This document shows, piece after piece, positions 164-4,307 of a stretch of 4,307 nucleotides of DNA. This stretch comes from a virus (lineage: Duplodnaviria > Heunggongvirae > Uroviricota > Caudoviricetes): the IMG/VR virus record IMGVR_UViG_2778261526_000002, one strand, 5' to 3'. The notes beneath the pieces are model-generated. The model did not search any database. It was not told the DNA's origin and saw nothing but the letters and a program-made list of their open reading frames with translations. Every line of letters begins with the position of its first letter. Within the stretch, counting starts at the first letter, position 1. A program made the translations under genes and the position numbers.

Positions 164-192
164 AATAAAAAAGGCACCATTTCTGGTGCCCT
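164..192 (-). terminator. Rho-independent terminator downstream of J
   Basis: The minus strand reads AG-GGCACC-AGAAAT-GGTGCC-TTTTTTATT. This is a perfect 6-bp GC-rich stem (190..185 pairing with 178..173), extendable to 8 bp with the flanking A-U and G-U pairs, with a 6-nt loop, followed by a run of six T then ATT (172..164). It lies 20 nt after the J stop codon (214..212). Confidence 0.6.
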
Positions 193-211
193 TATATGGG
201 TTATAACAATT

Positions 212-3200
212 TCAACGAATACTGATGCCGGAAGCGGCTTTTTTGGTCACAATCACCGTACAGTCGGTGATATTACCTGCCCGCTGATTGCCTTTATGGA
301 AAACCTTAAACTCCAGAGTGACGCTTCCCCTGCCACTCGGCATATCAATAACCGCACTGTAGCTACCGGGAATGGCCCCTTTAGTTTCTCTGGATGCGAT
401 TAATACACCGTTTTTGCGAACTTCAAAACCATACCCCGTGTATCTTGTACCTCCCGGGTTATTACCACTTCCCGGATCGCTATACGCTATTCCGTTAAAG
501 ATAATGGGCGGAATAATGATTTGACGGTCAAAGTTATGATCATCGCTGATGGTGACTGTAACCGTCCCGTTTGGTGTTTCCGTATTACCCCACGTACCAG
601 CCTGTTTCGGGAATGATTTGGATACAGCTTTAACGAAGTCACCTCTGACCTGAGTCGCCTCCAGCATGCCCTTAATCGTACAGTTTTCATTTACCGTGAC
701 ATTGTTGAGCGTCCCGGCGTTCGCATTCACACTGCCACTGATATCCGCATTTTTAGCGGTCAGCTTTCCGTCTGATGTCAGGGAAAATACCGGAGGACTG
801 CCACCACTGGTAATGGTGGGGGCCGTCAGGCGCTTCAGGAACACGTCGTTCATGAATATCTGATTGCCCTGCGCCACAAACATCGGCGTTTCATTCCCGT
901 TTGCCGGGTCAATAAATGCGATACGGTTAGCGGCAACCAGAAACTGACTCAGTTTGCCTTCCTCCGTGTCCTCCATGCTGAGGCCAATACCCGCGACATA
1001 ATGTTTGCCGTCTTTGGTCTGCTCAATTTTGACAGCCCACATGGCATTCCACTTATCGTTGGCGTCCTTCCACTCTTTCGAAAACTCCTCCAGTCTGCTG
1101 GCGTTATCCTCCGTCAGCTCGACTTTTTCCAGCAGCTCCTTGCCGAGATGGGATTCGGTTATCTTGCCTTTGAAAAAATCCAGGTAACCTTCCGCATCAT
1201 CGCTCGCCCGACCGACGGCCTCCACGAATGCCGATTTGCCAACGGTGTTCACACTGCGGATATAAAAGTAATAATCATGGCCCGGTTTGATATTGATACT
1301 GGCGGCTATCCAGTACAGCGCCGTACCAAGATAGCGGGCTGTGGTTTCAACCTGCCTGATATCCGCAATCCGCTTTTCCGAGAACCAGAACTCAAACTGT
1401 ACCGTCGGATCATAAACCGCAAGATGCGGCGTGGCGGTTATCTGAAAATAGCCCGGCGTCAGCTCAATCCGAGACGGCGCTGCCGGTGCGGCAATCCGGA
1501 ACGATACCGATGCCGGATCGCCCTGCTGTCCCCACGCATTTACCGCCCGGACTGTCAGCCTGTAGTTCCCCAGCGCCAGTTGCGTGAAGCGGTATGTGGT
1601 TTCCGCCGTCCGGGCCGTGCTGACCAGCCGCTCACTGCCGTCATCCGCTGCCACGGTCAGGCGAAGCAGGAAACTCACGCCCTTCACCACCTTCGGCGTG
1701 TCCCAGCGGGCCAGTACCTGATACTCCCCGCTGTCTGCGGTGACTTCGGCAGTCAGGTGCTGCACCGCGGGCGGCGTGACACCATTCACCGTGCCGCTCT
1801 GGTCGCCGTCAAAGTGCGCCCCGTTATCCACGATGGCTTCTTTTTCCGGTACATGCTGCACGGCAGTGATGGCATACGTGCCGTCATCGTTCTCACGGAT
1901 ACTCACACAGCGGAACAGGCGCTGGCGCAACGTCGGCAGCTTCAGCCCCCATACGCTGTATCCGGCAACGCCGTCAGGAACACGGCTCACTTTTACCTTC
2001 ACGCCGTCGGTGACGGACTGGACCTCCACGCTGACCGGATTGCCACTTCCGTCAACCAGGCTTATCAGCGTGGTACCGGAGGATGGCAGCGTGATTTCAC
2101 GGTCGAGCGTCAGCGTCCGGGTCTGGCTGTTCACCGCCAGCACGCGCCCGCCGGTGCTGATACCGGCATAGTCATCATCGCAGATTTCAATGACATCGCC
2201 CGGCACATGGCGAAGCCCTTCTGCGCCCACGCTGAAATCCACGGTCTGCGTTTCCAGCAGTTCTGTTTTAATCAGCCACAGCCCGGCGCGATGTGCCTGC
2301 CCCCGGCTGGTACAGCCAAAGGCATCCATCTTCGTGACGTTACGACCGTAACGGGCAATGGCCTGCGTGTCCTCCACAAGCTCTGTCGCCGTCTCCCAGC
2401 CGTTATTCGGGTCAATCCAGTTCACCTCAACGGCATTATGGCGGTCCTTCAGGGCGCTGAAGCTGTAGCGGAACGGCGCGCCATCATCCGGCATCACCAC
2501 ATTACTGCGGTTATAGGTCCACACCTTATCTGATGGTCGGTCCTGCACGAACGTCAGCGTCTGCCCGTTCCATACCGGCATACAGCGCATCGCCGAGCAG
2601 AAATCACTGAGCACATCCCACGCCTTGCGCTGTGTGGTCAGCCAGGCATTACAGGTGATGCGCGGCTCCGTGCCGCCAAAGCCGTCCGGCACTGACTGGT
2701 CGCAGTACTGGCCGATGACATACAGCGCCCATTTATCCACATCCGCCGCACCAAGACGTTTCCCCATGCCGTAGCGCGGGTGGGTCAGCATATCCCACAG
2801 ACACCAGGCCATGTTGTTGCTGTATGCCGGTTTAAACGTTCCGTCCCAGATACCGCTGTATTGCCGCGTCTGCGGGTTATAGTTCGACGGCACCTGCAGA
2901 ATGCGCCCGCGCAGATGATAATTACGGCTCACCTGCTGGCTGCCGAACTGCTCCGAATCCACCTGCACGCCGACCAGTGCCGTGTTCGGGTAGCCCTGTT
3001 TCACATCGATGATTTCGGTGTATGACGACCAGAGCGTTTTGTTCTGCAGCTGGTCTGTGGTGCTGTCCGGCGTCATCCTGCGCATCCGGATATTAAACGG
3101 GCGCGGCGGCAGGCTACCCACCACCACCGAGGCCAGATACTGCGAGGTGGTTTTGCCCTTAATGGTGATGTCTTTTTCCGTCACCCAGCCACCGTTACGT

Positions 3201-3625
3201 TGTATCTGAACCAGCAGGCGGACTTCCGATGGATTCCTGTCCCCCTTTGAGGTGGTTTCCACCAGTGCCTGCACGCCGAAAGTAAAACGCAGACGGTCAA
3301 TGTTTGCCGACGTGATGGTCCGGGTGATCGGCGTGTCATATTTCACTTCTGTACCGAGCACCGTCTCGGAGCCGGAGGATTCAAATCCCTCCGGCGGTGT
3401 CTGCTCCTGCTCACCGGCCCGGAACACCACCGTGACGCCGGATATATTGGTATTCCCCTCACTGTCCAGCACCGGCGTACTGTTCAGCAGCACGCTTTTT
3501 AATCCATCCACCGGACCTTCAACCGGCCCTTCGCTGATGGCATCGATCACACTCAGCAGCTGCGTGGACTTCAGGTTGTCCTTCGCTTCGCGCGGGGTAT
3601 GCCCCTTACTGCTGCCTTTACCCAT
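212..3625 (-). CDS. J: Tail tip host-specificity protein / central tail fibre (lambda gpJ family), 1137 aa, complete
   Basis: A 1137-aa minus-strand ORF whose N-terminus ([34 protein letters not shown]...) and most of its length match my recollection of bacteriophage lambda gpJ (1132 aa). GGAG at 3637..3634 lies 8 nt upstream of the ATG (3625..3623), and the stop is TGA at 214..212. The middle of the protein shows fibronectin type III-like motifs ([11 protein letters not shown]...[14 protein letters not shown] and [28 protein letters not shown]). The gene order I-J-lom matches lambda. Confidence 0.95.
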
Positions 3626-3685: not shown

Positions 3686-4307
3686 TCAGCGGCCAATCAC
3701 CACAACCTGACCACCGTCCCCTTCATCTGCCGTGCTGATCTCCTGAGAAACCACACGAGACCCCACACGCATTTCACCGTACAGAACAGGCAGAACATTG
3801 CCCTGGGCAACCATGTTATCCAGTGACGAGAAATACGTGTTCTGTTTGCCGTTATCTGTACTGGCTGCCGTGGGCGTCCTGGCTTTCGGTGCCAGCATCT
3901 GCGCCACACCACCCAGGATCATACTGGCCCCTGCTGCATACAGACCCGATACAGCCGCGGCCCCCAGCCAGCCAACAGGGTTCCACCATGCCACCGCAAT
4001 CAGCGCCGCACCCAGCACCGCCTGAAACACACCGCCACTTTTGGCACCCGCCAGACGCGGAACGACGTGGATCACGGCACCATTTGCCAGCGGTTCATTA
4101 AGACGGGCAGATAATTCATTTTCGCCTGCATCACGCCCGGAAATGCGCACCTGATACCAGCCCTCATTCAGTTTCTGGCGAAACGACGGAAGCTGTGTGG
4201 CCAGCGCCCGGATGGCTTCAGCCCCCGTTTTCACACGAAGGTCGATGCGGCGGCCAAATCGTTGTAAATCCCCGTAAAGGCAGATGCGTGCCATGCCCGG
4301 TGACGCC
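3686..4307 (-). CDS. I: Tail assembly protein I (lambda gpI family), 5'-partial; the true start lies beyond the window end
   Basis: The minus-strand ORF translates to MARICLYGDLQRFGRRIDLRVKTGAEAIRALATQLP...NGKQNTYFSSLDNMVAQGNVLPVLYGEMRVGSRVVSQEISTADEGDGGQVVVIGR, matching my recollection of lambda gpI at both ends. The reading frame stays open upstream of the Met at 4294..4292: bases 4307..4295 encode ..ASPG before MARI, matching lambda gpI, whose annotated start is about 13 codons further upstream. The stop is TGA at 3688..3686. Confidence 0.9.
   Translation of the reverse strand, partial: ASPGMARICLYGDLQRFGRRIDLRVKTGAEAIRALATQLPSFRQKLNEGWYQVRISGRDAGENELSARLNEPLANGAVIHVVPRLAGAKSGGVFQAVLGAALIAVAWWNPVGWLGAAAVSGLYAAGASMILGGVAQMLAPKARTPTAASTDNGKQNTYFSSLDNMVAQGNVLPVLYGEMRVGSRVVSQEISTADEGDGGQVVVIGR

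Follow-up and report, generated by a model that had tools for sequence, protein, structure and literature searches.

A phage 434-type receptor-binding domain, probably directed at OmpC, on the lambda-like J protein of an Escherichia coli prophage

We analyzed a stretch of DNA of 4,307 nucleotides (viral record IMGVR_UViG_2778261526_000002, hereafter the window), which makes up the whole of contig NKDO01000089.1 (4307 bp) in the draft E. coli assembly GCA_002456475.1, and focused on its gene J, encoding the tip attachment protein (gpJ in phage lambda) of a lambdoid prophage. We conclude with good confidence that this J protein carries, in its last ~150-195 residues, the receptor-binding domain (RBD) allele of phage 434 ("h434"), joined to a lambda-like body by homologous recombination, and that the porin recognized is most likely OmpC. 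The RBD is an old and separate allele, homologous to the RBD of lambda, of the same predicted fold and widespread in E. coli. A preliminary description made from the sequence alone had noted that the end of J looked diverged from lambda, had read this as a receptor-binding module acquired by recombination, and had suggested a receptor other than LamB.

The J protein was aligned to lambda gpJ, using NC_001416 as the lambda reference. Residues 1-942 were identical at 925 of 942 positions (98.2%) and residues 943-990 at 38 of 48 (79.2%), while residues 991-1137 matched at 54 of 136 (39.7%) with 17 additional gap columns. Scattered changes start at S943N, followed by V946A and S951P, and become dense from residues ~985-991. 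At the DNA level, identity to lambda computed in bins of 100 nucleotides (nt) was 0.90-1.00 up to gene nt 2900, 0.72 in nt 2901-3000 and ~0.5 beyond, and blastn homology to lambda ended at window position 656 (codon 990) and was not resumed elsewhere in the window. The drop in identity is thus located at residues 943-990, and the C-terminus is not as similar to lambda as the rest of the protein. It nevertheless remains a clear homologue of the lambda C-terminus (phmmer E = 3e-43 against PDB entry 8iyk_J), so that the earlier contrast between ~950 near-identical N-terminal residues and ~180 C-terminal residues that "do not match" lambda holds in substance (98.2% falling to 39.7%) but was overstated in its wording. 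The strongly diverged part spans ~147 residues, or ~195 when the transition zone is included, compared with the estimate of ~180; the protein string quoted there covered 143 residues starting at residue 995.

A Pfam search recovered the complete domain order of a J protein (FNIII-A_GpJ, Phage-tail_3, Ig_J, Ig_J_second, Phage_Tail_Tip and Ig_GpJ_C), with the RBD at the extreme C-terminus. The match to PF12421 (Ig_GpJ_C, [quoted passage not shown]) covered residues 1001-1136 with a score of 90.5 bits (E = 1.3e-25), the Pfam gathering cut-off for this family being 26.2 bits. We then modeled the last 195 residues of J as a monomer with AlphaFold, yielding a mean predicted local distance difference test score (pLDDT) of 79, with values of 80-92 across the domain, and searched the model with Foldseek. 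The top four matches were 8xck and 8xcj (lambda gpJ, closed and LamB-bound respectively) and 9wca and 9wcb (A8 gpJ tip, closed and OmpC-bound respectively), with E-values from 5e-16 to 8e-15, TM values of 0.62-0.70 and a probability of 1.00; the matches that followed had E-values near 5e-4. Sequence matches of the J C-terminus in the PDB were to gpJ chains only. Since the four best structural matches are all gpJ tips, the model indicates that the immunoglobulin (Ig)-like beta-sandwich fold of the lambda RBD has been kept, and that the segment is a divergent allele of the same domain and not an unrelated module. The assignment of the diverged stretch to the receptor-binding region in the preliminary description is borne out by the PF12421 match and by the position of the lambda and A8 RBDs at the top of the structural search.

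With the lambda RBD (8XCJ/8XCK), the window RBD shares the PF12421 family, the predicted fold, the location at the same fibre end and the motifs DDHxFDRQ and DMPxGxG, but it is set apart by five indels, by the lack of homology at the DNA level and by its G+C content at third codon positions (GC3; 46%, compared with 62% in lambda). The RBD of A8 gpJ (9WCA and 9WCB), a natural E. coli prophage allele whose use of OmpC was shown by experiment, has the same fold and was the best sequence match in the PDB (E = 2.5e-52); its identity is however only 52% across the last 195 residues, and 41% when the RBD alone is compared, and it belongs to a separate allelic class. We also considered whether the RBD could be one of the engineered OmpC-binding alleles A8 or 1A2 (PMC11338833) and rejected this on the basis of identities of 41-52% for A8 and ~40-60% for 1A2, the latter value being taken from fragments of a sequence ending in ...KKATAGITIS that was machine-read with errors from the supplement.

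The allelic class was assigned by comparison with phage J proteins. Over residues 1001-1137, the identity of the window RBD is 95.6% to phage 434, 99.3% to phage Perceval, 41% to A8 and 35-39%, depending on the alignment, to lambda; over residues 991-1137, identity is 95.9% to 434 and 99.3% to Perceval. In a tblastn search with the last 195 residues of J against 50,697 phage records, 74 records reached at least 80% identity and 192 stayed below 60%, and in all 74 of the 267 J-bearing phage records carry the window's RBD class at this threshold of at least 80%. Identities were bimodal, being either at least 89.7% or at most 51.5% with nothing in between among the matches listed. The window belongs to the upper group, together with phage 434, lambda h434 imm21, Perceval, Evi, mEp460, cdtI and many Stx1a- and Stx2c-converting phages, while lambda, HK630 and others form a lower group at ~46%. 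Division of the lambda J adhesin into discrete classes has been described before, a survey of gut coliphages having reported four main clusters (PMC6969025).

The J protein of phage 434 (UMO75286.1), which carries the classical h434 host-range allele, is also 1137 amino acids long and is 98.1% identical to the window J overall, with nine substitutions separating the two within residues 943-1137, of which six lie in the RBD. The two DNA sequences are 100% identical at gene nt 2301-2900 (window 726-1325) and 3301-3414 (window 212-325) but only 86-92% identical at gene nt 2901-3300, a 400-nt mosaic patch inside the RBD region which, lying between two perfectly conserved flanks, places the window in a different sub-lineage of the 434 class. 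Across codons 991-1137, the synonymous divergence (dS) from 434 is 0.33 and the nonsynonymous divergence (dN) 0.023 (dN/dS ~0.07), values that indicate purifying selection on the RBD within this class.

To assess how widespread the module is, we searched complete E. coli genomes with the 513 bases covering the RBD and the following intergenic region. Many of them carried this segment at 100% identity; 2082 of 5426 contained a match spanning 80% or more of the 513-nt query, and 354 records matched at 99% or more, the best match to the whole window among these genomes being 97.5%. In a scan of one genome per species, no close relative of the RBD was found outside Escherichia save for one contig of a Collinsella metagenome-assembled genome (MAG), and the same scan gave no evidence of a donor outside Escherichia. 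The contig in question (JAGZNZ010000056.1, 1350 bp, in a "Collinsella sp." MAG) carries the window's RBD class at 98% identity and is probably a mis-binned fragment of an E. coli prophage.

Several lines of evidence support the exchange of the RBD as an old allele by recombination, as opposed to divergence in place. First, dS relative to lambda is 0.12-0.15 for residues 1-959 and 0.21 for residues 960-990, and is saturated (4.6) for residues 991-1137. Second, the non-homology to lambda runs past the J stop codon into the intergenic region and the start of lom. The part of lom present in the window is of the 434 type and not of the lambda type, with 40 of 47 residues matching 434 Lom by hand count and no blastn match to lambda, and in 434 itself homology to lambda is not regained before lambda nt 19458, toward the end of lom (~lom codon 165; the 434 stretch spans 1043-1714). 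Third, the history of the N-terminal body does not follow that of the RBD: the body is about equally distant from lambda (dS 0.12-0.15) and from 434-class phages (dS 0.09-0.20), while the RBDs fall in two deep classes. J proteins with N-terminal parts that differ from the window's as much as lambda's does can carry the same RBD at 99-100% identity, and Perceval, Evi, mEp460, cdtI, the Stx1a and Stx2c phages and E. coli prophages share an RBD 97-99.5% identical to the window's, the N-terminal part of J being a different mosaic in each of them. Together with the purifying selection seen within the class, these observations argue for an exchange, as had been proposed in the preliminary description. 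The recombination would have been homologous and would have taken place at residues ~943-990, in the conserved part of the fibre that immediately precedes the RBD.

The competing explanation holds that no module was exchanged and that strong diversifying selection by host receptors drove the C-terminus away from a lambda-like ancestor in place. Positive selection is well known to act on receptor-binding tips, and the substitutions relative to lambda do build up gradually from residue 943 with no single sharp point. Selection on the protein would however not saturate synonymous sites in the RBD when dS remains at 0.12-0.15 in the body, and neither the extension of the non-homology into non-coding DNA and lom, nor the shift of GC3 from 63% to 46%, nor the occurrence of identical DNA in many otherwise different J genes and prophages fits with it. 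In our view, the dS profile and the way in which non-homology extends past the stop codon refute divergence in place, to which we give next to no credence.

The base composition of the gene had been put forward as a further sign of recombination, through a step from roughly 65% G+C in mid-gene to roughly 45% near the end of J that coincided with the divergence point. Exact computation gave 46.7% at window 181..700 and 65.0% at window 1501..1620, so the percentages were close to correct, but the latter interval is the G+C peak of the J gene and the location of the step does not hold for total G+C. The best single change point found by a likelihood search was at gene nt 2175 (window ~1450, codon ~725), where total G+C falls from 60.3% to 50.1%, ~800 bp upstream of the divergence point and inside sequence that is ~96% identical to lambda. 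Because the best change point of the J genes of lambda and 434 coincides with it, this step is a family-wide trait of the distal half of J and not a recombination scar, and it is uninformative on the swapped module. Across the divergence point itself, total G+C goes from 52.1% to 47.3% (Fisher p = 0.12), while GC3 drops from 63.3% in codons 751-990 to 45.6% in codons 991-1137 (p = 7e-4). The compositional shift therefore coincides with the divergence at synonymous sites only and is smaller than the contrast first described; what stands of the argument concerns third codon positions, the main step in total G+C being elsewhere and shared with lambda.

This leaves some room for the view that the AT-richer composition arises from local constraints on the distal fibre and from its amino-acid content, and is no mark of foreign origin, as the position of the largest step in conserved sequence, its presence in lambda and 434, and the non-significant change in total G+C at the divergence point would all suggest. 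On the other hand, third positions are less tied to amino-acid content and are precisely where the drop is seen, and the window RBD is poorer in G+C than the lambda RBD, both in GC3 (62.0% in lambda) and in total G+C (47.3% compared with 55.0%, p = 0.025). We consider this view possible but doubtful. More generally, a drop in G+C fails on its own to locate a recombination junction in J, and GC3 and synonymous divergence do better.

Evidence bearing on the other end of the exchanged segment came from phages such as Tritos, in which the same RBD class is followed directly by stf (side-tail-fibre gene), without lom, and whose homology to the window ends at window position 164. A second junction thus lies at the terminator that follows the J stop codon. 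The possibility that the RBD and lom form one obligate cassette is ruled out by Tritos, and the two are inherited together often but not always. Between J and lom, the intergenic region and terminator of the window are identical to those of 434, in which the terminator is annotated.

The likely receptor was then considered. Two publications, both citing older primary work, report that the receptor of phage 434 is OmpC and that lambda carrying the 434 J gene in place of its own binds OmpC (PMC3509688, PMC11101478). Natural gpJ C-termini grafted after lambda residue 964 switch lambda from LamB to OmpC (PMC11338833); the numbering of the window J follows that of lambda up to ~residue 1009, which places this graft point inside the transition zone. 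We also examined the sequenced laboratory hybrid lambda h434 imm21. Its informative sites are of the lambda type over nt 2182 to 17619 and of the 434 type from nt 17637, so that the crossover lies between nt 17619 and 17637, at ~J codon 712, and the sequence beyond is 434-derived as far as nt 21000 at least. The segment to which the h434 host range maps thus contains the RBD. Given the 95.6% identity between the window RBD and that of 434, for which OmpC use is reported, the window J is best inferred to recognize a receptor other than LamB, most likely OmpC, in line with the suggestion made in the preliminary description. By analogy with lambda and with the A8 gpJ-OmpC complex, three copies of the RBD would form the tip of the central tail fibre, and their distal loops may dock onto the extracellular side of the trimeric porin. 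Binding would then open the RBD trimer, and a twist passed up the fibre could open the tail tip for DNA ejection; this scheme of docking and signal transmission is drawn from structures of lambda with LamB (PMC11101478).

Some observations weigh against so direct a transfer of the 434 receptor to the window J. The 434-derived segment of the hybrid also holds lom, stf and tfa, and the RBD is thus not singled out by it. The published OmpC-binding RBDs, A8 (41% identity) and 1A2 (~40-60%, from fragments), are different alleles, so OmpC binding cannot be read from similarity to either. The window RBD itself differs from that of 434 at six positions (S1004A, Q1008K, A1009V, N1019D, S1049D and R1099G), all of which are among the sites that vary repeatedly across 49 sequences of the class (1004, 1008, 1009, 1019, 1049, 1099, 1108, 1110 and 1115), and these polymorphic sites could shift fine specificity, for example for particular OmpC variants. 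Our literature search on mEp460, Perceval, Evi and the PhiR phages, which share the window's RBD, found no paper that measured their receptor, and no measured receptor for any phage with the exact RBD haplotype of the window.

These points open the way to a reading in which the window RBD has the fold and ancestry of the 434 type but binds another receptor, or only some OmpC variants; candidates would be OmpF, another porin, or only OmpC alleles of strains other than K-12. Besides the six substitutions at sites variable within the class, it is favored by the distribution of the window haplotype, which is found, exactly or with one residue of difference, in O157 Stx1a and Stx2c phages and in the LF82 prophage Perceval and not in K-12 laboratory phages. 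In gpJ chimeras, moreover, natural RBD alleles discriminate between OmpC variants, 1A2 delivering to EDL933 OmpC and not to K-12 OmpC (PMC11338833). The 95.6% identity to 434 and the dN/dS of ~0.07 within the class suggest on the contrary that function is conserved. Lambda J can evolve the use of OmpF by a few mutations, so a small number of changes may suffice for a full switch of receptor, but this is not what would be expected by default. On this evidence we hold a different or restricted receptor to be quite improbable. A related proposal, that the nine variable sites tune the RBD to OmpC variants and that the window haplotype targets other E. coli strains than laboratory 434 does, or another porin, is speculative and in our view unlikely. 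We therefore retain the 434-type RBD with OmpC as its most likely porin.

The features of the window are listed in Table 1. Every gene lies on the minus strand, and the contig begins within lom and runs out within gene I. Its ends probably reflect breaks in the assembly at sequence that recurs in several lambdoid prophages of the strain. By exact protein look-up, the J protein is identical to RefSeq entry WP_096839871.1 ("phage attachment tail tip protein J [Escherichia coli]"), which belongs to a 90%-identity cluster of 4993 members. A scan of the window against Rfam matched no RNA family. The small RNA svsR was considered as a candidate for the region between J and lom and was dropped, as a paper on prophage-encoded svsR gave nothing placing it there. 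On the plus strand, an open reading frame (ORF) of 510 codons runs antisense to J at window 1001-2533, and we found no evidence that it is a gene; G+C-rich coding DNA often holds long antisense ORFs.

Table 1. Coordinates of the features of the 4,307-nt window, with strand and supporting details
Feature	Window positions	Strand	Details
Gene J, tip attachment / central tail fibre protein	212..3625	-	1137 codons plus stop codon at 212-214; ORF listing, Pfam
J conserved body, residues 1-942: hub domains, fibronectin type III (FNIII)/Ig domains, helical shaft, most of the beta-prism fibre	800..3625	-	
J transition zone, residues 943-990	656..799	-	79% identity to lambda
J divergent receptor-binding module, residues 991-1137	215..655	-	G+C 47.3%, GC3 45.6%
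Pfam Ig_GpJ_C domain, J residues 1001-1136	218-625	-	
Terminator-like hairpin and T run, directly after the J stop codon	170..193	-	Stem of 10 pairs
lom 5' part (Ail/Lom outer-membrane protein), first 47 codons	1..142	-	PF06316 Ail_Lom; cut by contig end
Tail assembly gene I	3686..4307	-	Frame open to contig end; 5' end may be cut

The window J thus carries an allelic class that is already known, in a protein that is already annotated, and its structure is a textbook case of the modular exchange of host range in lambdoid phages. The finding accordingly adds little to what has been established for these phages, the allele being the classical h434, the protein being present in RefSeq and the module being found in a large share of E. 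coli genomes. Its practical value would lie in a receptor prediction for this prophage, which would most likely use OmpC and not LamB.

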